From Gemmatimonadota bacterium (GTDB lineage Bacteria > Gemmatimonadota > Gemmatimonadetes > Gemmatimonadales > GWC2-71-9), in NCBI GenBank assembly GCA_003222155.1, contig QHUU01000056.1:4675-68674 (forward strand): a stretch of 64,000 nt of DNA, written 5' to 3'. Shown in pieces: positions 7,902-31,958 of the stretch (its first letter is position 1; every line of letters starts with the position of its first letter). The notes beneath the pieces were generated by a model. The model saw only the letters and a program-made list of their open reading frames with translations, ran no database searches and was not told where the DNA came from. The position numbers were made by a program, and so were the translations under genes.

Positions 7902-8321
7902 CTAGAGTGGCTCGCTCTGCGCGATACGCAGCGCCTCGGTGAAGACGGCCCGGACCTTTGTCTCGTCCCAGTGTGCGTGGCCGGGTGCGAGCGCGCCCAT
8001 CCACACGTCCAAGTCGGAACGTGGGCTCGTATCGGGAGGTGCGCGCCGTTTGAACGAAAGCCGCCCCATCGTCAGGCGCCGCCACAACGGGGACGCGGGG
8101 ATTGGCTCGGGCTCGCGGACCAGGGCGGGGGTGGGGTGCTGCAGGAACGCGCGGATGACCGGCGCCAGCTCGTGTGCAGTCATATCGAACGTGTGATCGC
8201 CACACAGGTACGGCGCCAGGATGGTCCGGGACTGGTGCACGAGTGCCCGCACCTGGTGGAACAACGCGGCTTGGTCTGGCATGGCGTGCGAATGCTCCTT
8301 CCTCGGATGAACCCGGATCAT
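7902..8321 (-). CDS. hypothetical protein (139 aa)
   Basis: ATG 8321 overlaps the GNAT stop (ATGA), the coupling pattern used throughout this window. The alternative start is ATG 8282 (MPDQAALFHQV...). No family recognised. Confidence 0.5.
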   Translation of the reverse strand: MIRVHPRKEHSHAMPDQAALFHQVRALVHQSRTILAPYLCGDHTFDMTAHELAPVIRAFLQHPTPALVREPEPIPASPLWRRLTMGRLSFKRRAPPDTSPRSDLDVWMGALAPGHAHWDETKVRAVFTEALRIAQSEPL

Positions 8322-14839: not shown

Positions 14840-15469
14840 CTAATCCACCCCGGAGAGGAGGGCGGCGATCACGATGGTCGCAATGCCGCTCGCGGCGGTG
14901 AGGGTGAGCCCCGGCACCCAGCCGAGCTCCATCCCGAGCGACATCCGCGCGTGTGACTGGACAGCGACGTTGCACTCGCTCGGTCCACAGCCGAGGAACA
15001 CTGGCCCGCGCACCAGCTCCGGCCGGGCCGCGAGCGCGAACCAATGGTTGGGACTCCACCGCACCAGGCCGAACACCGAGCCCGACCGGAGGTGGTCAGT
15101 AGCGGCCAGCAGGGGCGTACCCACGGCGACGTCCACAGACGCCGTGGACGACAGCCAGCGGCGGTAGTGGACGGCGGGTCCGACACCGACGCCAAGCCGG
15201 TCGAGGCTCGCGAACACGGACGCGCCAATGGCGTTGCGGCTATCGACGTTGGCCATCACGCCCCAATCCGCTACCGCGCGCAAGGGCGTATCGCCGCTCG
15301 TGATATCGCTGCCCAGTACCAGATAGGTCCCGAAATTCGTGAAGGCGAAGGCCGAGCAGACGGACTTGGGCCGCGCGCGGTAGCAGAACGATGGTTGGGC
15401 TTCCTGGGCCGGAGCCGTCTCGGACCAGGCGAGCAAGAACGGAATCCAGAGTAACGTGAGGCGACGCAT
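14840..15469 (-). CDS. hypothetical secreted protein
   Basis: ATG 15469 (MRRLTLLWIPFLLAWSETAPAQ) with GGGAG 7 nt upstream. The C-terminus is hydrophobic. Confidence 0.55.
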   Translation of the reverse strand: MRRLTLLWIPFLLAWSETAPAQEAQPSFCYRARPKSVCSAFAFTNFGTYLVLGSDITSGDTPLRAVADWGVMANVDSRNAIGASVFASLDRLGVGVGPAVHYRRWLSSTASVDVAVGTPLLAATDHLRSGSVFGLVRWSPNHWFALAARPELVRGPVFLGCGPSECNVAVQSHARMSLGMELGWVPGLTLTAASGIATIVIAALLSGVD

Positions 15470-15580
15470 GAGCAGCTCCCGCTGTGTAGGGCGTGCAGCC
15501 AATTAGCGGGAGGGCCGTCAAGCCGTTTTCAAGTCGGAGGGAGTCTTTACAGTGGACGAGAAGAGGGCGAAGCTAGACCC

Positions 15581-16408
15581 GTGACGGCAATCCGCGCTCC
15601 GCTCGCGTGCGCCCGCCTGGTGTTTGCCATCGCTCTGGTCACGGTGCGCCCCACGCTCGCGTGCCGTGGGGACGAGCCGGGCACCCCGCAACCAGCGCCG
15701 CCCTGGTGGCTCGTGTGGCACGACGAGTTCGACGGCGCGGCGCTCGACACCACGAAGTGGGTGCGGGAGACCGGGGGGACTGGCTGGGGGAACGGCGAGC
15801 TCGAGTTCTATACCAATCGGGTCGAGAACGCCCGGGTGGCAAGCGGCTACCTGGTGATCGAGGCGCGGCGCGAGCCGTTCGGCAACCAGGCGTACACCTC
15901 GGCGCGCCTCAAGACGCAGGGTCTGGGCGCTTGGCGGTACGGCCGCATCGAGGCGCGCATGCAGATCCCGCGCGGGCAGGGGTTATGGCCCGCGTTCTGG
16001 ATGCTGGGCGACGATATCGGGCAAGTCGGCTGGCCCGGGTGCGGCGAGATCGACATCATGGAGAACATCGGGAAGGAGCCGGGCCGAGTGCACGGTACGG
16101 TGCACGGCCCGAACTACTCCGGTGCCAACGGCATCACCAGCGCCTACGACCTGAGGAGCGGCGCGTTCGCCGACACGTTTCACGTGTTTGCGATCGAATG
16201 GCAGCCGGACTCGATCAAGTGGTTCGTCGACAGCACCCTGTACAAGACCGTCACACCGCGCGACCTGCCGGGGCGGTGGGTGTACGACCATCCCTTCTTC
16301 ATTCTTCTCAACGTCGCGGTCGGTGGCTACTGGCCCGGCAATCCGGATACGACGACGGTGTTTCCGCAGACGATGCGGGTGGATTACGTGCGGGTGTACC
16401 AGAGGTGA
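15581..16408 (+). CDS. glycoside hydrolase family 16 (beta-glucanase/laminarinase-like) lipoprotein
   Basis: Signal with lipobox-like PTLAC. GH16 catalytic motif GEIDIMEN (ExDxxE), WPAFWMLG, and C-terminal MRVDYVRVYQ. Confidence 0.9.
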   Translation: MTAIRAPLACARLVFAIALVTVRPTLACRGDEPGTPQPAPPWWLVWHDEFDGAALDTTKWVRETGGTGWGNGELEFYTNRVENARVASGYLVIEARREPFGNQAYTSARLKTQGLGAWRYGRIEARMQIPRGQGLWPAFWMLGDDIGQVGWPGCGEIDIMENIGKEPGRVHGTVHGPNYSGANGITSAYDLRSGAFADTFHVFAIEWQPDSIKWFVDSTLYKTVTPRDLPGRWVYDHPFFILLNVAVGGYWPGNPDTTTVFPQTMRVDYVRVYQR

Positions 16409-16460
16409 AGAGCGGTACCAGTCCCGAGCCGCGGAGCGGTCGTGGGCGCTCGCGGGCTTT

Positions 16461-16850
16461 GTGACCGACGGCACGACCCTCCTCGATCTAACGTCGGGTG
16501 TGACCGCCACGTCCACGCTGCTCACCGTCCAGACCGCAGTGGATGATGCGACGGATGGTACGCATGTCGGCGAGACCGGAACCCTGTCCCGCACGTGGGA
16601 GAACAGCGCGGATTTCAGCTTGACGAGTGGCGCCGAGATCGTGCGTGCCACTGGGGGCGTGGCGCTGGACACCACAGGTCACACGTGGAGGAGCGGGAGC
16701 GTGGCGGTCACGGTGAACGGACTGGCGTTCGCCACGATCACCGTCGCGCCGGCCGGTCCGAGCTACTCCGGAGCGAGCGGTGTGCAGCTCACTCCCGCGG
16801 ACGACGCGGCGCTCGCGAACCTGTTCGGCGCCTGGTTCGGGGCCGGTTGA
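16461..16850 (+). CDS. hypothetical T/G/A/S-rich protein (start uncertain)
   Basis: First in-frame GTG after the GH16 stop. GC3 is high throughout, and the stop lies 2 nt before the next ATG. There is no signal peptide and no family was recognised. Confidence 0.35.
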   Translation: MTDGTTLLDLTSGVTATSTLLTVQTAVDDATDGTHVGETGTLSRTWENSADFSLTSGAEIVRATGGVALDTTGHTWRSGSVAVTVNGLAFATITVAPAGPSYSGASGVQLTPADDAALANLFGAWFGAG

Positions 16851-16852
16851 TC

Positions 16853-17248
16853 ATGCCGCGACCGCACCGTTGGTCCTTCGGCGCCGCCGTCCTCGGCCTC
16901 GCGCTCACGTGCCCTGCCGTGCAGGCTCAGTGGGTGCCCTTAGGCACCCGGCGGGTGGATTTCCGCGCAGATCACGACATCGTGCGCACCGCCAGCGAGG
17001 GCCGATTCCGGCGCGTTCGCTTCGTGGTTGAGGGCGGCGACGTCGAGATGTTCGACGTGCGGATCACATTCGGGGACGGGGCCACGTTCTCGCCCGCCAC
17101 CCGGTTCACCTTCAAGCGGAATGCACGCAGCCGCGTGATCGCTCTCCCAGGCGGGGCGCGCGTCATCCGGTGGATCAATTTCTACTACCGGAGCGTCCTG
17201 GGGACTGCGCAGGGCAAGGCCACGATCCACGTGTACGGTCGGCGTTGA
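16853..17248 (+). CDS. small secreted protein (DUF2541-like by recollection)
   Basis: ATG 16853. Signal MPRPHRWSFGAAVLGLALTCPAVQAQ, then WVPLGTRRVDFRADHDIV...ATIHVYGRR. Confidence 0.6.
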   Translation: MPRPHRWSFGAAVLGLALTCPAVQAQWVPLGTRRVDFRADHDIVRTASEGRFRRVRFVVEGGDVEMFDVRITFGDGATFSPATRFTFKRNARSRVIALPGGARVIRWINFYYRSVLGTAQGKATIHVYGRR

Positions 17249-17284
17249 CGGCGGGCCTCGCCCGGCGGGCGCAGGACGTCGAGA

Positions 17285-17368
17285 CGGAGGGCACAGGACT
17301 CGAACCTGTACGGGCTTGCGCCCAGCGGTTTTCAAGACCGCCGCCTTACCAGTTAGGTCTAGCCCTCC
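17285..17368 (-). tRNA. tRNA-Ser (anticodon UGA)
   Basis: 84 nt. Acceptor GGAGGGC/GCCCTCC, anticodon stem GCGGT/ACCGC with loop CTTGAAA, long variable arm TGGGCGCAAGCCCGT, T-arm ACAGG-TTCGAGT-CCTGT. CCA is not encoded. Confidence 0.9.
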
Positions 17369-17424
17369 AAACACCACACGCGCCGAAGGTTAGGCCCCGG
17401 GCGGGCCGCGTGCTTGGCCCCGGT

Positions 17425-17446
17425 TTGCCCACAGTCTTGCCCACAG
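17425..17446 (+). repeat. direct repeat TTGCCCACAG x2 with 12-bp period
   Basis: Copies at 17425-17434 and 17437-17446, 57-78 bp upstream of the tRNA-Ser 5' end. Confidence 0.6.
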
Positions 17447-17531
17447 ATTCGAGCGCCCCCGGCGATGCGCTTGCAAGCTAGCACGCCCGCGCCAGTTTGT
17501 GCCACGTTCTTCCATACTAGGGGAGTGGCGG

Positions 17532-17648
17532 ATGCGGCTCGCGTTGCAGGTGCTCTCGGTAGCGTTGCTCGCGGCGTGTTGTGGTGGCGGGCCTCGCAGC
17601 AGCCACCGCGCACGTGAGGCAGCGCGGGGGTCCGTGCGCTTGGGCTAA
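17532..17648 (+). pseudogene. 38-codon ORF that is little more than a lipoprotein signal peptide (possible gene remnant)
   Basis: GGGGAG SD 6 nt upstream of the ATG. MRLALQVLSVALLAACCGGG followed by only about 18 residues and TAA. It is below the size cutoff of the ORF track. Confidence 0.25.
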
Positions 17649-18034
17649 CCCGTGTGCCGCCCGACGCGCATTACCCACAACACGGTCCACGAGTATAGCA
17701 CGAGGAGGAGGAATAGCGCACCAACGCTCACGCGACAAATACGACCGCGCCACGGTCTGCGCTCCGTTGACGTTGCGGGCCGCGCGGAAGTAATCGCCAG
17801 CGCAACGAAAGCCACGACCAGGAGGAGGGGGCCCAGGAGGTGAAGCTGCCGAATGAGTGCGGGAGGCGTGAAGGTACCGATAACGACAACCTGTGGGTAC
17901 CCTGGCTGCCACGTTCCGATTCTCGTAACGGTGAATCGATGCATGGCTAGGGCCATGGTGGCGACCACAAAACCGGCGGCGATGAGCTGCCAGCGGGTCC
18001 TTGCTCGCTGATCCGTGCTCGGTGGAGGCGTCAC
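17645..18034 (-). CDS. hypothetical membrane protein (about 3 TM helices)
   Basis: GTG 18034. Hydrophobic helices WQLIAAGFVVATMALAM, LLGPLLLVVAFVALAI and VGALFLLLVLYSWTVLWVM. Lies in a visibly less GC-rich stretch. Confidence 0.5.
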   Translation of the reverse strand: MTPPPSTDQRARTRWQLIAAGFVVATMALAMHRFTVTRIGTWQPGYPQVVVIGTFTPPALIRQLHLLGPLLLVVAFVALAITSARPATSTERRPWRGRICRVSVGALFLLLVLYSWTVLWVMRVGRHTG

Positions 18035-18144
18035 CTGAGGCTCGGGTTAAAGACTGTTCGGGAGCTTGGTCGGCGCACCGGCCGCAAGGCGAGCAGAACG
18101 AGTACGACCGCGAGGAGCAAGAGCGAGATGAAGACGCCATGCAC
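18031..18144 (-). CDS. possible 37-aa single-TM peptide coupled to the downstream membrane protein
   Basis: GTG 18144 with GGGGAGGG 8 nt upstream. VHGVFISLLLLAVVLVLLALRPVRRPSSRTVFNPSLR. Its stop overlaps the next start (GTGA). Confidence 0.3.
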   Translation of the reverse strand: MHGVFISLLLLAVVLVLLALRPVRRPSSRTVFNPSLR

Positions 18145-18190
18145 GGGGCTAGCCCTCCCCACCGCCGTAAGCTAGAGTCGCCACGCGATC

Positions 18191-18408
18191 ATGGTCAATC
18201 TGCCGCGCGCCTCCTCCTCGGATCCCCTGATCCCGCTCGTCTTCCTCGGCGTCCCCCTGACCGTTGTCGCCGCCGTCGCGCTGGCAAACAGGATCGTCAG
18301 GAATGATGAAGGCGCGGTGCGCGCGTTGTTCCCTCCGGGAGGTGATGTGGTGGCGGGACGGCCCGCTGCCAACCCCGATCAGTTCGGGTCGCTTTCGCCC
18401 GCGACTAG
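18191..18408 (+). pseudogene. decayed, internally deleted copy of the gene at 23877..24563
   Basis: Nucleotide similarity from 18171 (CTAGAGTCGC) through the N-terminal 40 codons (MVNL..SSSDPLIPLVFLGV..ANRI). Two internal deletions follow, then the homologous C-terminal codons, the homologous TAG (18406-18408, now out of frame) and the same downstream repeat element. Confidence 0.75.
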
Positions 18409-18415
18409 AGCCTCT

Positions 18416-18443
18416 ACTGACCCCGGGCGCAAGCCCGGGGTGA
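18416..18443 (+). repeat. REP-like GNRA hairpin element, copy A
   Basis: ACTGA-CCCCGGGCGCAAGCCCGGGG-TGA: 8-bp GC stem with a GCAA loop. Confidence 0.8.
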
Positions 18444-18791
18444 AGGCAGGGGCCGGGGAACACGGAGCGCGGCGCGTGAGCCGCAGTCACCCCCGGAAAA
18501 GAGGGGTCAGAGCCCACCCGTGGCGCCTGCGCGTCGGGGCAACTCCGCCACCTGGTGTGGGGCACGTGCTACGGAGCGAGTGGGAGAATACCCCGGTACC
18601 TGGTCACGAGTGACGTGACGGCGACGTTTAGAAGCGGTACACGACTTGCGAGCCCTGCCCCCGACCCGCGGCTGTGCGCGGTTCTAGGGAGGCGGGGGTG
18701 CGAATCGGGTTGTTGTCAGGGTGTTCGTCTAGGGACGGGCGCGACATGCCGGAAGTCGTCCGGTGAGCGCCGCGCGCGCCGAGCGTCGTCC

Positions 18792-20006
18792 ATGACGCCG
18801 GTTCGGTCGCCCGGCACCCGCACGCTGCTCCTGTACGCGCAGGACCGGCAGGGCCTCGGCCACATCACGCGTAGTCTCACCATCGCCCGCCATCTGCTGG
18901 CGCGCTACCCGAGCGCAGTCGTGTACCTCGTGACCAAATCCGCACTCGCGGGCCATTTCACCCTGCCCGAGCGGTGCGACTACATCAAGCTGCCCTCCCT
19001 ACTCACCCCGGACGGCTGGCAGGGGACGGCGTGTGAGGAAGAGGACGCGAAACGGCACTTCCGCGAGCTCCGAGGCACGATCCTCAGGGACGCAGCGCTC
19101 GGGCTGGCCCCGGACTTGGTGCTGGTGGACCATGAGCCGCTCGGCGCCAAGGGCGAGTTCGCCGCCGGCCTGCGCGCGCTGAAGGCCGCGCGTCCCGACA
19201 CGCGGTTCGTGTTGGGGCTGCGCGACATCATGGACGACCCGGAGCGAATTCGCGGGCAATGGCGCGAGCTCGGCGTGTACGACGCGCTCGAGCATCTGTA
19301 CGACGGCATCGCCGTGTACGGCTCGCCCGCGCTCCACGACGTGGCCGAGGCCTACGCCATCCCGCCGGGCATCCGGCCCAAGCTGCATTACTGCGGATAC
19401 ATCGTGCGCGAGGCCCCCCGGGTCGATCCCGCGGAGGTGCGGCGCGAGCTTGGTCTGCCCGACGGGGCGGCCCTGGTGCTCGCGACAGTCGGGAGCGGCA
19501 GCGACGGGTTCCCGGTCCTCGATGCGGCGGTCGCGGCTCTCGAGCGGTTGGCGGCCAGGCGCCCCGACCTCCGCGCGATCGTGGTCACGGGGCCCTTCAT
19601 GCCGGCGGACCAGCGGGCGGAGCTCGAGCGCCGGGCCACGGCGTCGTGCCACGTCGTCCCCGAGACCGACACGCTGCCCCTGTTCGCGGCCGCCGACGCG
19701 GTGGTGACAATGGGCGGCTACAACAGCGTTTGCGAGGCGCTGGCCGCCGCCCGACCGATGGTCATCGTGCCCCGGGCCACTGACAAGGTCGAGCAGTGGA
19801 TTCGCGCCGAGCTGCTGGCGGCGCGGGGCCTCGTCGCGTGCGTCCACCCGCGCGAGCTCGCGCCGGACCGCCTCGCCGAGGCCATCGAGTGGGCGCTGGG
19901 CTGCGATCGCGCCGCCCACGCGCGCCGCGTGCGCGAGGTCATCCCCTCGTTCGACGGCGCGGCGCGCCTGACGGCCTACCTCGCGCGCTGGCTCGGGGGA
20001 GACTGA
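18792..20006 (+). CDS. MurG-like GT-B glycosyltransferase (GT28 C-terminal domain / COG4671-like)
   Basis: ATG 18792. N-terminal LLLYAQDRQGLGHITRSLTIARHL. C-terminal donor-binding-type segment ADAVVTMGGYNSVCEALAAARPMVIVPRA. Confidence 0.8.
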   Translation: MTPVRSPGTRTLLLYAQDRQGLGHITRSLTIARHLLARYPSAVVYLVTKSALAGHFTLPERCDYIKLPSLLTPDGWQGTACEEEDAKRHFRELRGTILRDAALGLAPDLVLVDHEPLGAKGEFAAGLRALKAARPDTRFVLGLRDIMDDPERIRGQWRELGVYDALEHLYDGIAVYGSPALHDVAEAYAIPPGIRPKLHYCGYIVREAPRVDPAEVRRELGLPDGAALVLATVGSGSDGFPVLDAAVAALERLAARRPDLRAIVVTGPFMPADQRAELERRATASCHVVPETDTLPLFAAADAVVTMGGYNSVCEALAAARPMVIVPRATDKVEQWIRAELLAARGLVACVHPRELAPDRLAEAIEWALGCDRAAHARRVREVIPSFDGAARLTAYLARWLGGD

Positions 20007-20010
20007 CGCG

Positions 20011-21018
20011 ATGCGCCTCGAGTTCATGCCGAGCCCCGAGCGGCGCGCCGCGCTGCGCGCACAACGCGCACGCCTGGAACAGTCGACCGAGGTCCTGACC
20101 GTCCTGCGCCCCGAGTTCGCGACCGACGTCGCCGCGGCCGATGCGGCGTGTAGCGTCGAGAGCGTGCACCCCGATCGCTTCGTCCTCCGGACCCGCGTCC
20201 GCACGCGACTCGGCGTGTGGCGCTCGTTTGCGCTGAAGGCGTACGCCGACGACTTCGGCGCTCGGGTGTGGGCGCACGCGCGGGCCCTGGCCGCGTGCCG
20301 CGAGCTGGCGCCGGGCGGCGTGTGTCTGCCGATTCGCTACGTCGCGCACGAGCGCCTGCTGGTCTTTCCGTGGGTAGACGGTCGCTGCCTCACCGACATC
20401 GAGCATGACCGGGCCCCGGAGCTGTTTCGGCAGGCCGCGTGTCTCACCGCGAGCCTGCATCGCCTCCCGCTGGCCCCGGAGTCGCCAACCACCCCGGAAC
20501 AGCTCATCGCGCAGGTGGCCGCGCGGTGCGAGCGGCTGCGGCGGCGCTGGCCCGATGCGGCCCCCGTGATGGAACCCATGGTGTCGGCGCTCGCGGACGC
20601 CGTGAGCTCGCTCGATCCGGCGGAGCCCGCACCGGTGCACGGGGACCTGTGGGCGGGACAGTTCGTATGGACGGGCGAGCGTCTCGTACTGCTCGACCTG
20701 GACGCCTTCGGCTATACCGATGCGGCCTACGACGTGGGCCATTTCCTGGCGCAGCTCGAGCGTGGGGGGCTCGCCGATCCCGCGCGAGCGGCGCGCGCCG
20801 ATCGGTTGGGGGCCACGTTTTTCGATGCCTACCGCGTTTCGATGCCCGCAGTGTCGGCCCGCAACGTCGCGTTCTACCGCGCCCTCACGCTTGCCCGCAA
20901 GATCCATACGGTGCGCCGGACCGACCCCGCCGGGTGGCCCCGGCTCGCCGTCGCACTGGCCCGGCGCGCCCGCGCGGCGCTCGAGGCGATGGCGCCCGCC
21001 GCCGTGAGCGCCCGATGA
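20011..21018 (+). CDS. APH/choline-kinase-fold phosphotransferase, paralog 1
   Basis: Begins 4 nt after the GT stop. Lys context SFALKAY, catalytic loop VHGDLWAGQF, metal-binding segment VLLDLDAFG. Confidence 0.8.
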   Translation: MRLEFMPSPERRAALRAQRARLEQSTEVLTVLRPEFATDVAAADAACSVESVHPDRFVLRTRVRTRLGVWRSFALKAYADDFGARVWAHARALAACRELAPGGVCLPIRYVAHERLLVFPWVDGRCLTDIEHDRAPELFRQAACLTASLHRLPLAPESPTTPEQLIAQVAARCERLRRRWPDAAPVMEPMVSALADAVSSLDPAEPAPVHGDLWAGQFVWTGERLVLLDLDAFGYTDAAYDVGHFLAQLERGGLADPARAARADRLGATFFDAYRVSMPAVSARNVAFYRALTLARKIHTVRRTDPAGWPRLAVALARRARAALEAMAPAAVSAR

Positions 21019-22025
21019 GCGCGCCGGTCGCGCTCCCGTCTCCGGAGCTGGAAGTCGTCTTGCGCGCGACGCTGGGCGACGTGATTGGTCCCGCAGCCCG
21101 GCTCGACGCATGGACCGCGACGCTGGTCACGCGGCATGGGCGGCGCCGCGTCGTGCACTTCGAGCTCGACGCCTTCCTTCCGGGCCGCTCCGACCCGCAG
21201 CGCCTCGATTGGGTGGGGAAGTTCTACGACGGGGATGTGGAGGCGCGGCGGGTCGCGGGCCTGCTCGAGGGTCTCGCCCGTTGCGACGGCAGCCGGCACG
21301 GCGCGTTCGTCGTGCCCACGCTCCTCGGCTACGACGCCCCGCGCTACCTCGTCCTCATGACGTACGAGACAGGGGAGGAGTTGACGCCTGCGCTCGCGCG
21401 CTCGGGCGCCGTCGTGCTGGAGGCCATCGGACGCGCGCTGGCGGCGCTGCACGCAGTCAGTCCGCCGGCCGCGCTTCCCGGTGTAACGACGCCCGCCGTG
21501 GTCCTCGAGCGGTTACGGGCCCGTGTCGCCGCGATGTGCGAGCGGGTTCCCGAGGCAGGGGGCGTGCTGCGGCGCGCCTTCACCCGGCTGGAACGAGAAC
21601 CCCCCGTCGACCCTCGGGCTCCAGTGCTCCTGCACGGCGATTTCGGTCCCGCGCAACTCCTGTGGCGTGGTGACCGGGTCGTGATCTTCGACTTCGACCG
21701 CGCGACGCTCGGCGATCCGGCGCTCGACCTCGGGACCATCCTGACCCAGTTCCGCCGCAGCACGCTGCGAAAGCCCGGCCGGCTCGGGGACTTCGCCACG
21801 TTGCGCGCGACCCTGATCGATGCCTACGCCCGTCACGCGGGCCGCGAGCCGGGGCTCGCGGATCGGGTCCGCTGGTATGAGCGGACCACGCTGTTGGGTA
21901 AGATCCATTCGTTGCTGTTCGACACTACTCGCCACCCGGAGCCCGCGGCGCTCGAACGGCGGCGGACTGAGGCGGTGCGCTTACTGGAAGAGATTGCCGC
22001 CGCCGTCGGGTCGAGCTCGGGATGA
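21015..22025 (+). CDS. APH/choline-kinase-fold phosphotransferase, paralog 2
   Basis: ATGA overlap with paralog 1. DWVGKFY, LLHGDFGPAQLL, VIFDFDRAT. Confidence 0.8.
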   Translation: MSAPVALPSPELEVVLRATLGDVIGPAARLDAWTATLVTRHGRRRVVHFELDAFLPGRSDPQRLDWVGKFYDGDVEARRVAGLLEGLARCDGSRHGAFVVPTLLGYDAPRYLVLMTYETGEELTPALARSGAVVLEAIGRALAALHAVSPPAALPGVTTPAVVLERLRARVAAMCERVPEAGGVLRRAFTRLEREPPVDPRAPVLLHGDFGPAQLLWRGDRVVIFDFDRATLGDPALDLGTILTQFRRSTLRKPGRLGDFATLRATLIDAYARHAGREPGLADRVRWYERTTLLGKIHSLLFDTTRHPEPAALERRRTEAVRLLEEIAAAVGSSSG

Positions 22026-23446
22026 TGGAGTCACCCGCCGTGCCCCGAGACTCGCTCGCCGTCGAACGTGGCAAGGCGGGGTTTCCCGTCGACCCGAGCT
22101 TTCCGCAGCTCGAGATCGCGAGCGATCCCGCGCGGATGCTCGAGGTGTGCCGCGCTCACCTGGAGCCGGTCGCGGGGAAGGCCTACCACATCGACGCCTG
22201 CGTGCCGGTCCGGTTTCGGTGCCGGCAGTCCACATCGCGCTGCGTCCTCCAGTACTCGCTGCGCGTAATCGACCGGGTGACGGGAGGCGCGTTCGACCGG
22301 TGGGTCACCGGCGTGGTGTACTCGCGGTCGGGGGAAGCCGAGCGCCTGTGGCGAGAACTCGGGGCCACGGATCCGAAGCGCTCGATTCCCGATCAGTGGC
22401 TCACCTTCGAGCCGCTCGCCTACGTCCCCGAGCTTGAGATGCTGGTGCAAGTCTTTCCGTATGATCGCCAGCTCCGTGGCCTCGGCAGAGTGCTCGCAAC
22501 CGACGGCCGGGAGCTCGCGCCGCTCCTGCGGGCGCAGGTGGGCGCGGGTGACTGGCGCGCCGGCGCCGGGCGCCTCGAGCTTCTGCGCTATCGTCCCGAG
22601 ATCGGCGCCGCGCTGCGCTACACGTTGGAGCTTCGGGACACGCGGTCGGGACGCACCCAGACGCGTCGCTGCTACGTGAAGGTGTGCCGTCCCGGGCGTG
22701 GCGCCGCCACGTTCCAGTTGATGGAGGCGCTCTGCGCGGGGCACGCCGGGGCCCGATCGGCGTACGACGTCGTGCGGCCACTGGCCTATCTCGAGGAGCT
22801 CGACACGCTCGTCGTCGACGAGGCGCCCGGCACGGCGCTGCTCGTGCTCCTGCGAGGACGCGACGATCCGATGCCGGCGGTGCGCGCCGCCGCGCGCGCC
22901 CTCGCCGCGTTCCATCTGAACGGTCGAGCCATTGGGCCGCACGAACCCCTGGCGGAGCAGATTCACGACGTCGAGCGGGCCGCCTCGCTGCTCGAGTGGG
23001 CGTGCCCGGAGGTGAGCGACGACGTCCGGGCCGTTGCCGCCACGGTCGTCGCCGATCTGACGGAAGCGCCGCCGACGCCGATCCACGGCGACTTGAAGGC
23101 CGATCACCTCTTCATTGCAGGCGATCGGGTCACCGTCATCGATTTCGATCGCGTCGCCGTGGGCGATCCCGTCCGCGACCCCGCCCGTCTCTACGCCTAT
23201 CTGACGGGTCGCGTCGGGCTCGATGCGGTGCCAGCGGAGCGGGCGGAGGCGGCCGCCGCCGCGTTCGTTGACGCGTACTTCGCTCACGTACCAGCCGAGT
23301 GGCGCGAGAGATTTGACCTGCAGTACGCTGGGGCCTTGCTGGAAGTGGCGACCGGTTTGTTCCGCAGCCAGGAGCCCGGGTGGCGGCGCTTGGTAAGCGC
23401 CGCGGTCGCGAGCGCCTGCCGCGCCCTGTCCTCACGATGGGCCTGA
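22022..23446 (+). CDS. APH/choline-kinase-fold phosphotransferase, paralog 3, with about 190-aa N-terminal extension
   Basis: ATGA overlap with paralog 2. CYVKVC, IHGDLKADHLF, TVIDFDRVA. Confidence 0.8.
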   Translation: MMESPAVPRDSLAVERGKAGFPVDPSFPQLEIASDPARMLEVCRAHLEPVAGKAYHIDACVPVRFRCRQSTSRCVLQYSLRVIDRVTGGAFDRWVTGVVYSRSGEAERLWRELGATDPKRSIPDQWLTFEPLAYVPELEMLVQVFPYDRQLRGLGRVLATDGRELAPLLRAQVGAGDWRAGAGRLELLRYRPEIGAALRYTLELRDTRSGRTQTRRCYVKVCRPGRGAATFQLMEALCAGHAGARSAYDVVRPLAYLEELDTLVVDEAPGTALLVLLRGRDDPMPAVRAAARALAAFHLNGRAIGPHEPLAEQIHDVERAASLLEWACPEVSDDVRAVAATVVADLTEAPPTPIHGDLKADHLFIAGDRVTVIDFDRVAVGDPVRDPARLYAYLTGRVGLDAVPAERAEAAAAAFVDAYFAHVPAEWRERFDLQYAGALLEVATGLFRSQEPGWRRLVSAAVASACRALSSRWA

Positions 23447-23497
23447 AGCACCTCGGCCGCACCGGTCTAGTCCGACGGCCGGTCCACCCAGCCCAGG

Positions 23498-23515
23498 CCG
23501 GTTTTCAAGACCGCC
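23498..23515 (-). other. fragment of the tRNA-Ser anticodon arm (pseudo-tRNA scar)
   Basis: 18-nt perfect match to 17328-17345 (CGGTTTTCAAGACCGCCG on the + strand). In the tRNA sense the match extends to 24 of 26 nt, with a 2-nt indel, into the start of the variable arm (CTGGGC). Confidence 0.5.
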
Positions 23516-23744
23516 GAAACCGCCCCAAACAGGACCCGTCACCGCGCTCGGTCCACGTCTCCCGCACATAGCCCAACCGCGAGGCGGCGACGAGCAGTTG
23601 CGCCTCGAGGCGCGCGGAAAAGTGTCCCCCGACGGCTTCATAGCCTGCTCCTAGCGCGGAGAGGAATTCGCCGAACTCCACCCCCAGGGCGAAGCTGTCG
23701 CTCTGATCGAGGTATGTGATGAACACATCGGGCGGCGCGCTCAT
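23505..23744 (-). CDS. hypothetical 79-aa protein
   Basis: ATG 23744 with a perfect AGGAGG 10 nt upstream. MSAPPDVFITYLDQSDSFALGVEFGEFLSALG... The stop codon is the TGA of the tRNA-fragment anticodon. Confidence 0.5.
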   Translation of the reverse strand: MSAPPDVFITYLDQSDSFALGVEFGEFLSALGAGYEAVGGHFSARLEAQLLVAASRLGYVRETWTERGDGSCLGRFRRS

Positions 23745-23774
23745 GGGGATACTGCCTCCTATCGCGATATCCCC
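23745..23774 (-). promoter_or_regulatory. hairpin enclosing the SD of the 79-aa ORF; contains the 10-bp palindrome TATCGCGATA
   Basis: In the mRNA sense: GGGGAUA-UCGCGAUAGGAGGCAG-UAUCCCC-AUG. The stem is 7 bp, the SD lies in the loop, and the 3' arm abuts the AUG. Confidence 0.35.
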
Positions 23775-23876
23775 TGAAGATGCCTGAGGGCGACTCGGGG
23801 TCACGGGTAGGTCAACCGCTCGGCGCAGCAGGGTCTGGCCCTTCTGACCGGCGGACACTAGAGTCGCAGCGTGCAC

Positions 23877-24563
23877 ATGGTCAATCTGTTGCGCGGGTCG
23901 TCCTCGGATCCCCTGATCCCGCTCGTCTTCCTCGGCGTCGCCCTGACCGTCGTCGCCGCCATCGCGCTGGCCAACAGAATCACCACCAACCGGCGGCGCA
24001 AGGCCTACGAAACCTTCTGCTTCGAGCGCGGCTACCGATTCGAACCGGAGCGTCCTGGGGAAGAAGCCCGCCATGTGGCCACGTGCCCGGTGTTCTCGGA
24101 AGGACACCGGCGCACGTGGGGGTTCACCATCGTCGGCACGAGCGGCGGCACGCCGTTCACCGCGTTCGAGTACAAATGGACCACGGGCTCCGGGAAAAAC
24201 TCGCACACCCACCGTATCGGCGGCCTGCTGTGGACCACGGAGCGCGCGCTCTCTCAGTTCCTCGTCACGCCCGAGGGCCTCTGGGCCAGACTCGCGGCGT
24301 ACTTCGGAGGGCAGGACATCGATTTCGCCGAGTCGCCCGAGTTCTCGCGCGCCTATCGGCTACGAGGGAGTGATGAAGCCGCGGTACGTGCGTTGTTCAC
24401 GCCCGCACGCCGCCAGGTGTTCGAGCTGGTTCGAGGCCAACACGCCGCCGGCGCCGGCCGGGAGCTGATGTGGTGGCGAGACGGCGCGCTGCCGTCCCCC
24501 GATCAGTTCGACACGTTCATCATGGAAGGCGAGCGCATCCGCGTGGCGTTCGCCCGCGACTAG
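23877..24563 (+). CDS. membrane-anchored protein of unknown function (intact copy of the 18191 pseudogene)
   Basis: ATG 23877 is conserved in the decayed copy. N-terminal TM DPLIPLVFLGVALTVVAAIALANRI, followed by a soluble domain of about 190 aa. No family recognised. Confidence 0.7.
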   Translation: MVNLLRGSSSDPLIPLVFLGVALTVVAAIALANRITTNRRRKAYETFCFERGYRFEPERPGEEARHVATCPVFSEGHRRTWGFTIVGTSGGTPFTAFEYKWTTGSGKNSHTHRIGGLLWTTERALSQFLVTPEGLWARLAAYFGGQDIDFAESPEFSRAYRLRGSDEAAVRALFTPARRQVFELVRGQHAAGAGRELMWWRDGALPSPDQFDTFIMEGERIRVAFARD

Positions 24564-24570
24564 ACCCTCG

Positions 24571-24598
24571 ACTCACCCCGGACGCAAGCCCGGGGTGG
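24571..24598 (+). repeat. REP-like GNRA hairpin element, copy B
   Basis: ACTCA-CCCCGGACGCAAGCCCGGGG-TGG, 8 nt after the stop of 23877..24563. Confidence 0.8.
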
Positions 24599-24765
24599 CG
24601 ACCGCTGGGAGCCTCCGCCGCCCGATTCGCACCTGGTCGAGAACCTCACAAGATCCTCACACAATTCTAAAACGGCGGCTCCGCCTCGTGGGCTGATCGG
24701 AACAAGGTTTGCCGAGTCGGCACGTACCGGAGATCAATCGAGACAACGGCAACCGGAGGTGCCCG

Positions 24766-25833
24766 ATGGAACGTCACGTGTCATCGCTGCGCGGTTCCGC
24801 GATAGCGGTCGCAGGGCTCACGTCGATGCTTGCTGCGTGTTCCAACACCACGACGACGAACGTCGCAGCGCGGGAATATCTCGAAACCCGGCTCGTGGCC
24901 GACACGGCGGGGCTCGGTGCTGCGAGTGTCGACAGCAGTCTCAAGAATCCGTGGGGCATGGCGTTCGGGCCGACCGGCGTGCTCTGGGTGAGCGACAACC
25001 ATTCCGGCGCGTCGACCCTGTACGACACGACCGGCGCGAAGCGCGCGCTGGTCGTCGCGGTCCCCTCGAGCGGCAGCGCCACGGGCGGCGCACCGAGCGG
25101 GATCGTCTACAATCCCACGGCTGATTTCGTCATTCCGGGGAGCAGCAAGGCGCTGTTCATTTTCGCGGGCGAGGATGGCGTCATCTCGGCATGGAACGCG
25201 AGCACGGGCAACGCCACGCTCGTCGCCGACCGCTCGGGGAACGGTGCGGTGTACAAGGGCCTCGCGATGGCCGCCAACGGCGGCGCGAATTTTCTGTTCG
25301 CTACCGACTTCAAGCAGAACGGCGTAGACGTGTTCGACGCCACGTTTCAGTTCGTGAAATCGTTCACTGATTCCACCGTGCCGGCGGGATACGCGCCCTT
25401 CGGCATTCAGGCGATCGGCGGCCAGTTGTATGTCACGTTCGCAAAGCAATTGGCGCCTGCCAATCAGGATGACCAGGCCGGGCCCGGGAACGGTTACGTC
25501 GATGTCTTCAATACGAACGGCACCGTCGTCAAGCGATTCGCGACCCGAGGCGCCTTGAATTCCCCCTGGGGCGTGGCGCTCGCGCCGGCCGGGTTCGGTG
25601 GGTTCAGCGGCGATCTGTTGCTCGGCAACTTCGGGGATGGCCGAATCGGCGCGTATGATCCGGCCACGGGTAGCTTCATCGACTTCCTGCGCGATGGTAC
25701 CGCCAACCCGATCGTGATCGACGGCCTCTGGGGACTCACGTTCGGCCCGAGCCCGGACTCGACGACGCTGTTCTTCACGGCCGGGCCGGACGGCGAGGCC
25801 CACGGTCTACTGGGCACCCTCACTGCGAAGTGA
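24766..25833 (+). CDS. TIGR03118-family beta-propeller lipoprotein
   Basis: ATG 24766 with GGAGG upstream and lipobox LAAC. Family-typical strings NPWGMAFGPTGVLWVSDN, YKGLAMA, VDVFDATF, NSPWGVALAPAGFGGFSGDLLLGNFGDGRIGAYD, IDGLWGLTFG. Confidence 0.8.
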   Translation: MERHVSSLRGSAIAVAGLTSMLAACSNTTTTNVAAREYLETRLVADTAGLGAASVDSSLKNPWGMAFGPTGVLWVSDNHSGASTLYDTTGAKRALVVAVPSSGSATGGAPSGIVYNPTADFVIPGSSKALFIFAGEDGVISAWNASTGNATLVADRSGNGAVYKGLAMAANGGANFLFATDFKQNGVDVFDATFQFVKSFTDSTVPAGYAPFGIQAIGGQLYVTFAKQLAPANQDDQAGPGNGYVDVFNTNGTVVKRFATRGALNSPWGVALAPAGFGGFSGDLLLGNFGDGRIGAYDPATGSFIDFLRDGTANPIVIDGLWGLTFGPSPDSTTLFFTAGPDGEAHGLLGTLTAK

Positions 25834-25844
25834 CCGGGCCGTGA

Positions 25845-28193
25845 CTAGCGCTCGCTCGGCGGATTGAACCCGTAGCTCGTGTTCTTAAAGACCGAGTCGG
25901 CCACCACCAGCGCCTGGGTCGCCAGATCCGGCTTGCGCTGCCGCAGCACCTGCGCCAGCGCCTGATACACGATGCCGTAGGTGGCGAGGATCGATTCCGA
26001 CGGCCGGTCCACCCAGCCGCGCGGCCGGAGACGCCCGGCGGCCGCGCGATGATACACGTCGAACGCGAGCGCTGTGGTGCGGGGAAGGTTGATGGCCCCG
26101 AGCCCGGGCCCGAGCGCTACGATGCTGTCCGATGCGACCAGCGGCTCCCGGTGCAGCTTGCGTGCGAAGCCCTGACCTTCCAAGTAATCGCTCAGGCCGA
26201 AGAGGTCGGCATAGGGGCCCACCGTGCGCGAAAAATAGATGGGCCGCTTGCCCATCTGGTCCTTGATGGCTTCGAGCACGATCACGTCGGCCCGCTCGAG
26301 ATACTGCCGGCCGAGCTGTTGCGGATCGAGCGACACGCTGACCCCGCCGAGGTTCACGAGTCGCTTCTGGTCGAGCCAGTACACGGGCTCCAAGTGCGCG
26401 AGCTGCTCGTCGGTATAGTCGAGCAGCCGGCCGGCCGGCTTGGGCCAGGCGCGCGCGCGATAGATCGACGGCGCCGCGGTCGAGTCGAACGTGGCGAGCG
26501 GCCGGCGCTGCAGCTGGCGCAGGTACCAGTCGGTGTTGGCGAGCGACAGGTTCACCACCGTCACGTCCTGACGAATGTGCTCCACTTCCTGCGCGTACCA
26601 CAGGGGGAAGGTGTCGTTGTCCCCCGCGGTCACGAGCACGCCGTACGGCTCGACCGACTGCAGCATGTCGTAGGCGAAGTCGCGCGCCAGCGTCTCACCC
26701 CTGCGCGACGCAGTGAGGTGGTTGCCCACGAGCGGCACCAGCGCGAGCAGCAGCACCGGAGTCGCCAGCAGCCAGCGCCGGGCCGGGTCGGGCTCCCGGG
26801 TCTCGAGCGACTCCGTCAGCCATTCCATCAGGGTCGCGAGCCCCATCCCGACCCACACGCCCCACAACGCGAACGAGGCGATGAAGAAATAGTCGCGCTC
26901 GCGCACCTCGTGCAGCGCCTGCGGCAGGTCGGGGCGCTGCGAGTAGCCGTACTTGAAGTTGAGATAGAAGATCAACAGCAGCGTGAGCGTCGCCATCAGG
27001 GTCGTCATGGCGACGGCCGTGCGGCGGTCGGCCTTCCAGTGGCGGTACGCGCCCAGCGAGCCCACGAACGCGAACACGACGGCGAGCGCCCCGCGCGCCC
27101 CGGTGGCCCAGTCGCGCCCCCACTGCCACGTGAAGTACTGGATCCACATGCCGATCTGCGCCTGGGGCGTCGCCTGGCGTTGCCACACGGGCGGCTTGCC
27201 GTACTGCTGGCGCGTGAGCACGTCCCATAGGGCCGCCTGTGTGGTGGGCTCGCCTTCGTTGATCGGCGGGAAGTGCGCCGCCCGGATCGGCAGGAACAGG
27301 TACACCGACACGCCCACCGCCGCCACCAGCAGGACCGCCAGCGCGAAGTCACCGTTGCGAGCGTAGGCGAGCGCGTACACCAGCGCCGCCGCGAACAGCA
27401 CGACCGCGAGCTTCAAGGGCGTGGAGCTCTCGAGCCCGCTCGCCACGATCAGCGCGTACGCGCTGCAGAACACCAGCCACTGCGACCACTCGACGCGCCG
27501 GGCCGCGAGCCCCCCAAGTCCCATCGCACGCTCCTGCTTGAGCGGCGGATACAAAAGCACCATCACCACCGGGCCGACCAGCACGCCCATCATGTGGTTC
27601 GTGGAGGTGAGCGCCAACAGGTACACGATCATCAGGAGATGGTGATCGTGCCCTTCGCCGGGGGGCTGATCGTCCCAGCGCACGATGAGCCACAGCACCA
27701 GCGCGATCGACAAGAGCGACAGCGTGTACACCTTCTCGTTCACCACCGACTGGTTCCACACGGTGAACGCGGTCGCCGCGCTGAGCGCGCCGGCCACCGC
27801 GGCCAGCCGCCGCGGCAGCCGGGCCGGAACCCAGCTCCGCATCCACCGCTCGCCCACCAGGAACCAGCACCCCGCCGCCACCGCGCTCGTCACCGCGGCG
27901 AGCAGGTTGATCCGCTCGGCATACGCGGCCGCGAGCGGCAGCAGGCCCCACGTGTGGGCGATCAGCGTGAACAGGGGATTGCCCGGGGGGTGCGGGATGC
28001 CGAGCACGTAGGCGGCGGCGATGTATTCGGAGGTGTCCCAGAACTGGGTGGTCGGGGCGAGCGTCGCGACGTAGAGGATCAGGGCGCCCAGCGCGACGCC
28101 CCCGGCCCAGAGGTAGGGCGGGCGCTCCACCTCGGGGGACAGCGCCGGTTGGTCGATTGTCGTGCCCAGCCGCGTCATCTGGTCGGTCGTCAT
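25845..28193 (-). CDS. DUF2723 (GT-C fold, TMEM260-like) polytopic membrane protein, paralog 1
   Basis: ATG 28193. LAPTTQFWDTSEYIAAAYVLGIPHPPGNPLF signature. Many TM helices followed by a soluble C-terminal domain. Confidence 0.85.
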   Translation of the reverse strand: MTTDQMTRLGTTIDQPALSPEVERPPYLWAGGVALGALILYVATLAPTTQFWDTSEYIAAAYVLGIPHPPGNPLFTLIAHTWGLLPLAAAYAERINLLAAVTSAVAAGCWFLVGERWMRSWVPARLPRRLAAVAGALSAATAFTVWNQSVVNEKVYTLSLLSIALVLWLIVRWDDQPPGEGHDHHLLMIVYLLALTSTNHMMGVLVGPVVMVLLYPPLKQERAMGLGGLAARRVEWSQWLVFCSAYALIVASGLESSTPLKLAVVLFAAALVYALAYARNGDFALAVLLVAAVGVSVYLFLPIRAAHFPPINEGEPTTQAALWDVLTRQQYGKPPVWQRQATPQAQIGMWIQYFTWQWGRDWATGARGALAVVFAFVGSLGAYRHWKADRRTAVAMTTLMATLTLLLIFYLNFKYGYSQRPDLPQALHEVRERDYFFIASFALWGVWVGMGLATLMEWLTESLETREPDPARRWLLATPVLLLALVPLVGNHLTASRRGETLARDFAYDMLQSVEPYGVLVTAGDNDTFPLWYAQEVEHIRQDVTVVNLSLANTDWYLRQLQRRPLATFDSTAAPSIYRARAWPKPAGRLLDYTDEQLAHLEPVYWLDQKRLVNLGGVSVSLDPQQLGRQYLERADVIVLEAIKDQMGKRPIYFSRTVGPYADLFGLSDYLEGQGFARKLHREPLVASDSIVALGPGLGAINLPRTTALAFDVYHRAAAGRLRPRGWVDRPSESILATYGIVYQALAQVLRQRKPDLATQALVVADSVFKNTSYGFNPPSER

Positions 28194-28209
28194 GCTCGCT
28201 CGTTTCGGA

Positions 28210-30399: not shown

Positions 30400-30413
30400 A
30401 GGCTCGTCACCGG

Positions 30414-31958
30414 TCAGTGCCTGAACTGTCGGATGCCCGTGAACACCATCGCCACCCCCGCCTGATCGGCCGCCGCTACCACCTCGGCGTCCTTCACCGA
30501 GCCGCCCGGCTGGATGATCGCGCTTACTCCCGCCCGGGCCGCTTCTTCTACACCGTCCGCGAACGGAAAGAACGCGTCGGAAGCTAACACCGCCCCGGCC
30601 GGATCGTGCCCCTGTTGGCGCGCCTTGTGAATCGCGAGGAACGAGGCGTCCACGCGCGACATCTGGCCCGCACCGATACCGATCGCCGCCTGGTCGCGGG
30701 CGAGCAGGATGGCGTTCGACTTGACGACGCCCACGGCCGCCCACGCGAAGCGCAGGTCCCGCCACTCGGCGTCGGTGGGAGCGCGCCGGGTGACGACCTT
30801 CCACCCCGCTTCGTCGGCGGAGCGGGCCGCGTGGGATCGCTCCTGCACCAGGAACCCTCCTCGGATACGCTTGTAGTCCCACCCCGCCGCATCGCCTGCC
30901 GGCACCCGCACCACGCGCAGGTTCTTCTTGTCCCGGAAGACGCTCAGCGCATCGTCCGCGAACGCGGGGGCTGCCACCACTTCTACGAACAAGTCGCGCA
31001 TCGCCTCCGCGGCGCCGCGATCGACCGCGACGTTGAACGCGATCACCGAGCCGAAGGCGGAAGTGCGGTCGGTGGCAAGGGCGCGCTCGTACGCTTCCCG
31101 GGGCGAGCGCCCCAGCGCGATACCGCACGGGGTGGTGTGCTTGATGATGGCGCACGCCACGGCGTCTGAGCCGGCCCACGGCGCGACCGCCGCGACGGCG
31201 GCATCCACATCGAGCAGGTTGTTGAACGACAGCTCCTTGCCATGGAGCTGCTCCAGGTCGCGGATCCCGGGCTCGGGACTCGCGTACAGCGCGGCCGCCT
31301 GATGCGGGTTCTCGCCGTAGCGCAGCTCCTGGCGGCGCTCGAGGGCGAGCGTGATCCGCTCGGGCCATCCCGGCGTGTCCTGCGTCAGGTACGCGTGGAT
31401 CACGGCGTCGTAGGCGGCGGTGTGGGCGAAGACTTTGGCGGCGAGGTCCCTACGCAACCCCGGGCTTGCGCCCGGGGTGAGTGAACCTGTCTTCAGGGCG
31501 GCAATCACCACGGGGTAGTCGTCCGGATCGACGATCACAAGCACGTCATGGTGGTTCTTGGCCGCCGAACGCAGCATCGAGGGGCCACCGATGTCGATCT
31601 GCTCGATTGCCTGCTCGAAGGTGACGCCGGGTTTGGCGACCGTCTCGCGAAACGGATAGAGATTCACGGCCACGAGATCGATCGGCGTGATGCCGTGCTC
31701 CGCCAGCGCGGCGCGGTCGCCGGCGTGGGCGCGCCGGGCGAGCAGGCCGCCGTGCACTTTGGGATGGAGGGTCTTCACGCGGCCATCCATCATTTCGGGG
31801 AAGCCCGTGACGCGCTCGATCGGGATCACCGGGATGCCGGCCTGGCGCAGGGTGTCCGCCGTGCCGCCGGTCGAGACGATTTCCCAGCCGAGCGCAGCCA
31901 GGTCGCGGGCGAACTCGACGACGCCGCGCTTGTCCGAAACCGACAGCAGCGCTCTCAC
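30414..31958 (-). CDS. purH: bifunctional AICAR transformylase / IMP cyclohydrolase
   Basis: GTG 31958 overlaps the upstream stop (GTGA). [38 protein letters not shown]-terminal GIRQFRH. Confidence 0.95.
31455..31482 (-). repeat. REP-like GNRA hairpin element, copy C, embedded in frame in purH
   Basis: Minus-strand reading ACTCA-CCCCGGGCGCAAGCCCGGGG-TTG, translated as [10 protein letters not shown] in the purH interdomain linker. Confidence 0.7.

Follow-up and report, generated by a model that had tools for sequence, protein, structure and literature searches.

What does a bacterium make with a glycosyltransferase whose gene runs directly into those of three related kinases? The question is raised by a four-gene unit at positions 18792-23446 of a 64,000-nucleotide stretch of contig QHUU01000056.1 from a Gemmatimonadota bacterium (assembly GCA_003222155.1), which we refer to as the window. 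The unit consists of four open reading frames (ORFs) on the same strand, encoding a glycosyltransferase (GT) and the kinases K1, K2 and K3. Orthogroup names refer to the comparison with other genomes below.

18792-20006, + strand: GT, a GT-B glycosyltransferase of 404 aa with a Glyco_tran_28_C domain (core orthogroup GT)
20011-21018, + strand: K1, a kinase of the APH/ELK fold, 335 aa (orthogroup KA)
21015-22025, + strand: K2, an APH-family kinase, 336 aa (orthogroup KB)
22022-23446, + strand: K3, an APH-family kinase with two N-lobes, 474 aa (orthogroup KC)
22079-22546, + strand: degenerate N-lobe duplicate at the N-terminus of K3 (aa ~20-175), which has lost the ATP-anchoring Lys; assigned from hhalign and the pattern in the AlphaFold2 model

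The window contains a reduced form of a larger cassette, which normally also carries an MsbA-like exporter and a GT2 or Nudix gene and often extra kinases. We postulate, at slightly less than an even chance and by analogy with known systems, that the enzymes of the cassette build a glycoconjugate destined for export and phosphorylate it at several positions.

A glycosyltransferase and three kinases in one unit

The four genes are tightly packed. The GT stop codon (TGA, 20004-20006) is followed by the four nucleotides cgcg and by the ATG of K1 at 20011, and the kinase genes overlap by ATGA at 21015-21018 (K1/K2) and 22022-22025 (K2/K3), in agreement with the gene limits, the gap and the two overlaps given in a preliminary description of this DNA. 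The arrangement is best explained as a single operon. Its gene order was found again in about 70 independent loci, which puts the four-gene unit far beyond chance. Promoter and terminator scans returned nothing above chance, and an Rfam scan of 15000-26000 found a tRNA as its sole match, with no regulatory RNA upstream of the cassette. A search of PADLOC-DB, which covers anti-phage defence, returned no family for any of the four proteins at E<=0.1.

The GT had been described as MurG-like, a label that derives from its C-terminal donor-binding domain only. The C-terminal part matches Pfam Glyco_tran_28_C (E 2.9e-9, 37.6 bits, cut-off 22), and PDB entry 1F0K aligns with residues 127-368 (E 1e-3). 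The murG model TIGR01133, an equivalog, is matched with 26.3 bits against a cut-off of 250, so the enzyme is not MurG. Models of macrolide- and rifamycin-inactivating GTs are likewise far from reached, with 34.8 of 260 bits for TIGR01426, 27.6 of 700 for NF033129 and 20.3 of 800 for NF000354. Homologues with 60-94% identity occur in about 60 loci, and soil metagenomes are rich in them; about 20 more loci hold homologues of 35-40% identity.

All three kinases have the APH/ELK fold and keep the Lys, HGD and DxD residues. The Pfam APH model (PF01636, gathering cut-off 23.2 bits) matches K2 with 82.2 bits (E 6.3e-23) and K3 with 53.3 bits (E 4.2e-14). The K1 sequence has no such match, its sole Pfam match being a sub-threshold one to fructosamine-kinase. 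Most close homologues of K1 carry precomputed PF01636 matches, BLASTP aligns K1 with K2 (E 1e-19) such that the Lys, HGD and DxD positions coincide, and the AlphaFold2 model of K1 (pLDDT 91.6) retrieves APH-fold kinases in Foldseek. Together with the model of K3 (pLDDT 89.9), these results bear out the description of the unit as a GT-B enzyme followed by three divergent APH-fold paralogues.

Every motif quoted in the preliminary description was found at its expected place. In the GT, these are GLGHITRSL at residue 21 and VTMGGYNSVCEALAAARPMVIVPR at residue 305. K1 has Lys76 within SFALKAY, the loop HGDLWAGQ (aa 210-217, nt 20638-20661) and LLDLD (nt 20689-20703). The corresponding features of K2 are Lys69 within DWVGKFY, HGDFGPAQ (nt 21633-21656) and IFDFD (nt 21684-21698), and those of K3 are Lys220 within CYVKVC, HGDLKADH (nt 23084-23107) and VIDFD (nt 23135-23149). 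The Asn of the canonical HxDxxxxN loop, five residues past the catalytic Asp, is replaced by Gln in K1, Gln in K2 and His in K3.

Orthologues confirm that catalytic residues are kept. An all-against-all comparison assigns K1 to KA, K2 to KB and K3 to KC, and 38 KA, 40 KB and 35 KC sequences taken from about 70 loci were aligned. None of the 38 KA sequences departs from Lys, HGD or DxD, and their loop residue is Gln in 35 and His in 3. KB keeps Lys, HGD and the first Asp of DxD in 40/40 and the second Asp in 39/40 (one Glu), with Gln (21), Asn (17) or His (2) at the loop position. In KC, Lys, the loop His and Asp, and DxD are invariant (35/35), and the loop residue is always His, within H[GR]DLK[PAT]DH; HRDLK is found in 10/35. 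Maltokinase-type enzymes do carry Gln at this position, as the preliminary description had it: in the maltokinase Mak, Gln310, five residues past HGD, binds Mg1, and in glucosamine (GlcN) kinase the loop reads DVHGDFHVGQI, with Q305 on the metals (PMC4306142, PMC6520443).

More specific family models gave a different picture. The best NCBIfam match of all three kinases is LxmK (NF038156, cut-off 315 bits), with 43.6 bits for K1 (E 2e-11), 44.4 for K2 (E 1e-11) and 31.1 for K3 (E 1e-7), each covering the catalytic-loop region only. Resistance-kinase models matched K2 with 20.3 of 205 bits (APH(3'), NF033068), 14.7 of 650 (MphF, NF000255) and 19.8 of 390 (Cph, NF041268). K3 does not match the Kdo/WaaP kinase family PF06293, although its loop pattern HxDxxxxH and its IDxD are still as in WaaP. 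PDB sequence searches with the kinases gave no informative matches. The components belong to known superfamilies, yet every specific family test failed.

K3 is set apart by its N-terminal region, for which a second, degenerate N-lobe had been suggested. hhalign aligns residues 75-142 of K3 with residues 197-264 (P 88%, E 2.8e-6), the position of the Lys being replaced, and in the AlphaFold2 model residues ~20-175 are confidently folded and repeat the strand/helix pattern of an N-lobe. This self-match and the repeated pattern support the suggestion. The top Foldseek matches of K3 are the mycobacterial maltokinases 4O7O/4U94 (E 2e-10, full-length alignment, TM-score 0.43-0.45, 15% identity), followed by corramycin, aminoglycoside and macrolide phosphotransferases, MtnK and LxmK. 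The two-N-lobe family is sizeable, with 177 clusters at 50% identity retrieved at E<=1e-30, mostly as end-to-end matches.

The full cassette and its distribution

We compared gene neighbourhoods and mapped the cassette proteins by tblastn over 78 genome loci. A single conserved order, (GT2 or Nudix)-GT-KA-KB-ABC exporter-KC-(KD, KE), emerged. The cassette was found in about 70 loci, and in about 60 loci GT, KA, KB and KC are syntenic with the exporter, a fused ABC_membrane+ABC_tran protein of ~600 aa. Exporters from loci with the labels Gemmatimonadales, Betaproteobacteria and Haliangiales share 75-78% identity. The models nearest to the exporter are MsbA, MsbA-related proteins, glucan exporters (NdvA/ChvA) and HepA, with all scores below the cut-offs. 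The four genes co-occur widely, so the neighbourhood survey that had been proposed as a check left the unit standing.

The window and its closest relatives carry GT-KA-KB-KC only. These relatives are the loci L010-L013 (84-94% aa identity) and L090, a soil-metagenome scaffold in ENA (CRIT18-1_SAMN08902864 scaffold_2705) whose DNA is 99.9% identical to window positions 16161-30000; the closest genome bin is Gemmatimonadetes AG21 (L012), with ~92% DNA identity. A tblastn search of all cassette proteins over the 64-kb window found the four genes alone, with no exporter, GT2 or KD. All four window genes are intact and under purifying selection, with ratios of nonsynonymous to synonymous substitution rates (dN/dS) in the window clade of 0.19-0.20 for GT, 0.36-0.58 for K1, 0.23-0.30 for K2 and 0.34-0.41 for K3. 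In a full-cassette clade, dN/dS is 0.17 for KA and 0.24-0.30 for KC.

Natural fusions connect two of the kinases. Four proteins of 818-830 aa (P0173, P0200, P0211 and P0219) are of the KB-KC fusion type: in P0173, residues 8-324 share 46% identity with K2 (E 5e-78), and the remainder shares 53% with K3. The KB-KC fusions and the ATGA overlaps argue that the kinases act together. Two of the fusions, P0173 and P0200, carry a precomputed PF06293 (Kdo/WaaP kinase) match. An assignment of the 818-830-aa proteins as KC-KD fusions was also considered and ruled out by direct comparison, P0173 being the one tested.

Several further genes accompany the full cassette. The paralogue KD, present in many full cassettes (for example L003 16428-17552) and absent from the window, has HGT in place of HGD in its catalytic loop and, judged by its sequence, is probably a pseudokinase. 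A Nudix hydrolase with a canonical Nudix box (Pfam E 1.6e-14) substitutes for GT2 in L021 (~3500-4006), L023, L025, L027 and L056; the gene lies immediately upstream of GT, and its DNA is ~82% identical between bins labelled Verrucomicrobia and Gemmatimonadales. In 15 loci, a CBM9-DUF5916 protein of ~750 aa is encoded directly upstream on the same strand (L001 7756-9996, with a 4-nt gap). This protein, not found in the window, may serve the cassette as a partner in the outer membrane or in the binding of carbohydrate.

More distant clusters, with GTs of 35-40% identity, still link a GT with an ABC exporter and an APH kinase, and are enlarged by two GT4 enzymes and by a double kinase in fused form (L074; 15+ loci). 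Many such loci are from Chloroflexota, Gaiellaceae, Rokubacteria, Gemmatimonadota and Proteobacteria. Some, as on a Manganitrophus plasmid, also have a gene resembling heparinase/alginate lyase, additional GTs and an 'alginate export' porin. Such gene content is a signature of glycan assembly and export. GT homologues on rhizobial plasmids (~32% identical) are without kinases.

Probable transfer between phyla and a tRNA-linked site

The cassette occurs in bins that bear the labels Gemmatimonadota, Verrucomicrobia, Betaproteobacteria, Terriglobales (Acidobacteria), Chloroflexi, Rokubacteria, Eisenbacteria, Haliangiales and Methanobacteriota/Thermoplasmata; these are bin labels and may be wrong. 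GT identities in these bins are 59-72%, and the 60-72% identity seen across phyla points to horizontal transfer. On the archaeal contig L046, genes for pantoate kinase, CoaBC and HerA adjoin the cassette, so the presence of the cassette in both domains is real. The G+C content of the cassette follows that of each host contig. Between L003 and L016, L020 and L063, in bins labelled Betaproteobacteria and Gemmatimonadetes, whole cassettes are 85-95% identical in protein sequence and the ABC exporter 94-95%; either the transfer was very recent or a shared element has been mis-binned.

The immediate flanks of the window copy had been described as repeat-bracketed and tRNA-adjacent, and both elements were recovered:

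17283-17369, - strand: tRNA-Ser(TGA) beside the cassette, called by ARAGORN
18145-18442, + strand: left arm of a direct repeat, a three-piece partial copy of the gene downstream of the cassette
23831-24597, + strand: right arm of the direct repeat, holding an intact ORF of 230 aa (23871-24563)

The repeat comprises three matching pieces, 18145-18295 with 23831-23981 (84%), 18335-18376 with 24458-24499 (88%) and 18385-18442 with 24540-24597 (88%), the upstream arm having an internal deletion relative to the downstream gene 23871-24563. The 230-aa product of this gene has a predicted N-terminal transmembrane segment and no family match. Rfam scores the tRNA (17286-17368, - strand) as tRNA-Sec with 40.6 bits, below the gathering score of 47 bits, probably due to the long variable arm. 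By blastn, the tRNA-Ser(TGA) or a fragment of 53-57 nt lies upstream of the cassette in the window (17280-17368) and L012 (6719-6812), and downstream in L010 (9247-9302), L011 (8419-8474) and L013, which holds both a fragment and a full copy (6762-6814 and 8118-8202). The arrangement looks like an att-type duplication at a tRNA-linked island. The adjoining tRNA-Ser, the flanking repeat and the tRNA fragments on the opposite side form the signature of a recombination-prone island of this kind.

Other neighbours of the window copy were also recorded. A GH16 glucanase (15581-16408) lies upstream, as does a TPR-repeat Ser/Thr protein kinase extending to 14836. Downstream, an NHL-repeat protein (24709-25833) is followed by a TMEM260-like membrane protein, resembling protein O-mannosyltransferases (25845-28352, - strand); a second TMEM260-like paralogue in tandem is placed at ~28370-30560 (- strand) from L090 12050-14239.

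Proposed function and alternatives

Under the proposed mechanism, the GT-B enzyme would transfer a sugar from a nucleotide-sugar to an acceptor at the cytoplasmic membrane face, most likely a lipid-linked or oligosaccharide molecule. K1 (KA), K2 (KB) and K3 (KC) would then phosphorylate different hydroxyls of the glycoconjugate at the expense of ATP, probably as a complex, and in the full cassette the MsbA/ABCB-type exporter would move the phosphorylated product across the membrane. We infer the sugar or glycoconjugate substrate, the order of the steps and the formation of a complex. As the window copy has no pump, its product would stay intracellular or use an exporter encoded elsewhere.

Three lines of evidence argue for carbohydrate chemistry: the GT-ABC-kinase linkage at 35-40% GT identity gains GT4s and polysaccharide-type genes, the accessory CBM9-DUF5916 and Nudix genes have sugar-related functions, and the unusual loop residues of the kinases are those of the sugar kinases Mak, GlcN kinase and WaaP. 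Known systems offer partial parallels. In the waa operon for the inner core of lipopolysaccharide (LPS) in E. coli, genes for the GT-B enzymes WaaC/F/G are interleaved and overlapping with those for the kinases WaaP and WaaY, much like the GT and kinases of the cassette. The K-12 WaaP sequence reads HRDCYICH ... IDLH and resembles K3 in having His where the loop Asn would be and in its IDL metal motif. The LPS core product is flipped by MsbA, to which the MsbA-like ABC_membrane+ABC_tran exporter of the full cassette corresponds; the window copy has none. In contrast to the waa system, however, the cassette kinases are of the APH type and larger (335-474 aa against 233-265 aa), K3 lacks PF06293, and heptosyl and Kdo transferases are missing. 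The cassette also occurs in Chloroflexi and Thermoplasmata archaea, lineages taken to lack LPS. A second parallel is WbdD (PMC3482155), a kinase-fold enzyme that adds phosphate to the terminal sugar of an O-polysaccharide; here too the glycan is built by GTs and then exported by an ABC transporter. WbdD is a kinase-methyltransferase fusion working with Wzm/Wzt, of ABC2 type, whereas the cassette has three separate APH-type kinases, no methyltransferase and, in its relatives, an ABCB/MsbA-type exporter.

A number of observations weigh against the assembly and export of a phosphorylated glycoconjugate. Among the core genes of the cassette there is none for an initiating phosphoglycosyltransferase, for sugar-nucleotide synthesis or for a lipid carrier. 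The GT family assignment comes from the C-terminal donor-binding domain alone. Neither the exporter nor GT2 is present in the window clade, and the constraint on its KA and KC is somewhat relaxed compared with the full-cassette clade. By sequence, the best NCBIfam matches of all three kinases are partial ones to LxmK, of class V lanthipeptide synthesis; by predicted structure, the neighbours of K1 include TvaE and LxmK, proteins of pathways to RiPPs (peptides made by the ribosome and modified after translation), and the fold search is otherwise generic, with small-molecule, antibiotic and peptide kinases scoring alike.

These last points lead to RiPP tailoring, in which the kinases would phosphorylate Ser/Thr residues of a precursor, or some of them would act as kinase-fold scaffolds or cyclases, the GT would glycosylate the peptide and the ABC transporter would export it. 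We regard this as unlikely, although part of the evidence does support it. It draws on LxmK, a class V lanthionine synthetase kinase, as the top NCBIfam model for K1, K2 and K3, and on the Foldseek search with K1, whose matches are led by TvaE in sequence identity (22-23%, at ranks 2 and 4) and by LxmK in TM-score (0.66, at rank 24). More than one kinase-fold paralogue can occur in a RiPP cluster (PMC12291118). The LxmK/LxmY and TvaC/TvaE systems for class V lanthipeptides and thioamitides resemble the cassette in having several APH-fold paralogues per cluster. In the Haliangiales locus L007, moreover, five tandem ORFs of 48-54 aa lie divergent from the cassette and share the leader EELEERIAP ahead of G/N/P/S/T-rich cores. 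Such peptides (L007 1-1753, - strand; also L008 and L037) are encoded in a stretch of lower G+C (0.545) and have hypervariable cores, one ending in HHHHH. From their sequences they look like RiPP precursors, and none matches an NCBIfam family.

Other evidence speaks against RiPP tailoring. The LxmK scores of 31-44 bits stand against a cut-off of 315 and concern the catalytic-loop region only, and the cassette neighbourhoods hold no HopA1-type lyase or cyclase. A profile hidden Markov model of the five Haliangiales leader peptides, searched against six-frame translations of all loci and the window, matched in that organism only, and a scan of 18 high-GC loci (the window and 17 others), filtered by G+C at third and second codon positions (GC3/GC2), gave no convincing precursor-like ORF beside the cassette. 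Small ORFs clustered across the loci proved for the most part to be shadow frames of the conserved genes on either side. Unlike the LxmK and TvaE systems, the cassette is without a lyase, and without a precursor peptide in the window or most loci; all three paralogues have complete catalytic triads. Distant relatives add GT4s, lyase-like and alginate-export genes.

Inactivation of a xenobiotic or antibiotic combined with efflux, in which the GT and kinases would modify an incoming antibiotic, in the manner of macrolide GTs, Mph, APH and Cph, and the ABC pump remove it, is improbable in our estimate. Selection in soil would explain the spread across phyla, and the tRNA-adjacent, repeat-flanked site and the 60-72% GT identity across phyla and archaea are signs of mobility. 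The C-terminal domain of the GT weakly matches models of macrolide, oleandomycin and rifamycin GTs, and the structural neighbours of the kinases include corramycin, macrolide, aminoglycoside, viomycin and amicoumacin phosphotransferases. Every resistance-family model, however, remains far below its cut-off (MGT 35/260, Mgt 28/700, APH(3') 20/205, MphF 15/650, Cph 20/390). Resistance is normally conferred by one enzyme, whereas here three to five conserved kinase orthogroups occur in fixed order and with natural fusions, and distant relatives carry extra GT4s and polysaccharide-type genes. Biosynthesis or resistance clusters for aminoglycosides and other antibiotics, such as str for streptomycin, unite a GT-B enzyme, APH-fold kinases and ABC_membrane-type exporters, the same combination as the cassette, which differs in having no cyclitol, aminotransferase, dehydrogenase or phosphatase genes.

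Two further readings, a supply of sugar-1-phosphates and the phosphorylation of proteins, are less likely. For the former, which we consider quite improbable, one or more of the kinases would act as anomeric sugar kinases whose products are polymerised by the GT or a partner, as maltokinase feeds GlgE. Mycobacterial Mak/Pep2 and actinobacterial GlcN kinase share with the cassette kinases the APH/ELK fold, an extra N-terminal domain and the HGDxxxxQ loop; Mak is the top Foldseek match of K3, its N-terminal extra domain included, and K3 alone has a weak TreS_Cterm/maltokinase match (TIGR02457, E 0.085, 11.5 bits against a cut-off of 375). GT1/GT28-type enzymes, however, use nucleotide sugars, and the cassette has no nucleotidyltransferase, no GlgE-like transferase and no TreS/GlgE context. 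The D-x-H sugar-binding motif of Mak and GlcN kinase is absent, being DLW, DFG and DLK in K1, K2 and K3, and K3 has His rather than Gln at the loop position and a duplicated N-lobe instead of the ~88-aa cystatin-like cap subdomain (PMC4306142). That the kinases are protein kinases or form a regulatory module, with K3 phosphorylating proteins, is very improbable: its loop H[GR]DLK[PAT]DH resembles the HRDLKPxN of Ser/Thr kinases, the more so in the KC orthologues with HRDLK, and Ser/Thr protein kinases are the top PDB sequence matches of the K3 family profile on the catalytic loop, but those matches are non-significant (E 0.09-1), the structure matches are to small-molecule kinases, and strict linkage to GTs and an exporter is unexpected for signalling kinases.

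The assembly, phosphorylation and export of a glycoconjugate is therefore the interpretation that we carry forward. The preliminary description had known of no characterised pathway with one GT and three kinases, and literature searches (COG4671; the combination GT28+APH+ABC) found nothing relevant; in the libraries and literature searched, nothing characterised corresponds to the cassette as a whole. A more specific and more doubtful version is a new pathway for a multiply phosphorylated (polyanionic) glycolipid or oligosaccharide, in which three APH-fold sugar kinases, one of them pseudo-N-lobed, form a hetero-oligomer, and which has recently been exchanged among soil phyla and Thermoplasmata. 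Such an exchange among many bacterial phyla and Thermoplasmata would imply a function that is independent of envelope type.

If the proposed function is correct, the cassette would represent an unstudied, very widespread module of soil microbes that couples glycosyl transfer, dedicated phosphorylations and ABC export and moves between phyla and domains. It would also establish new subfamilies of sugar kinases, in which Gln or His stands where the canonical metal-binding Asn is expected, along with a kinase that carries a second, degenerate copy of its N-lobe, and it could bring to light a new class of phosphorylated glycoconjugates, in the envelope or secreted. Should antibiotics or peptides be modified instead, the cassette would amount to a new mobile module for resistance or natural products. 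Under either reading, the reduced and full forms provide a ready comparison for experiments.

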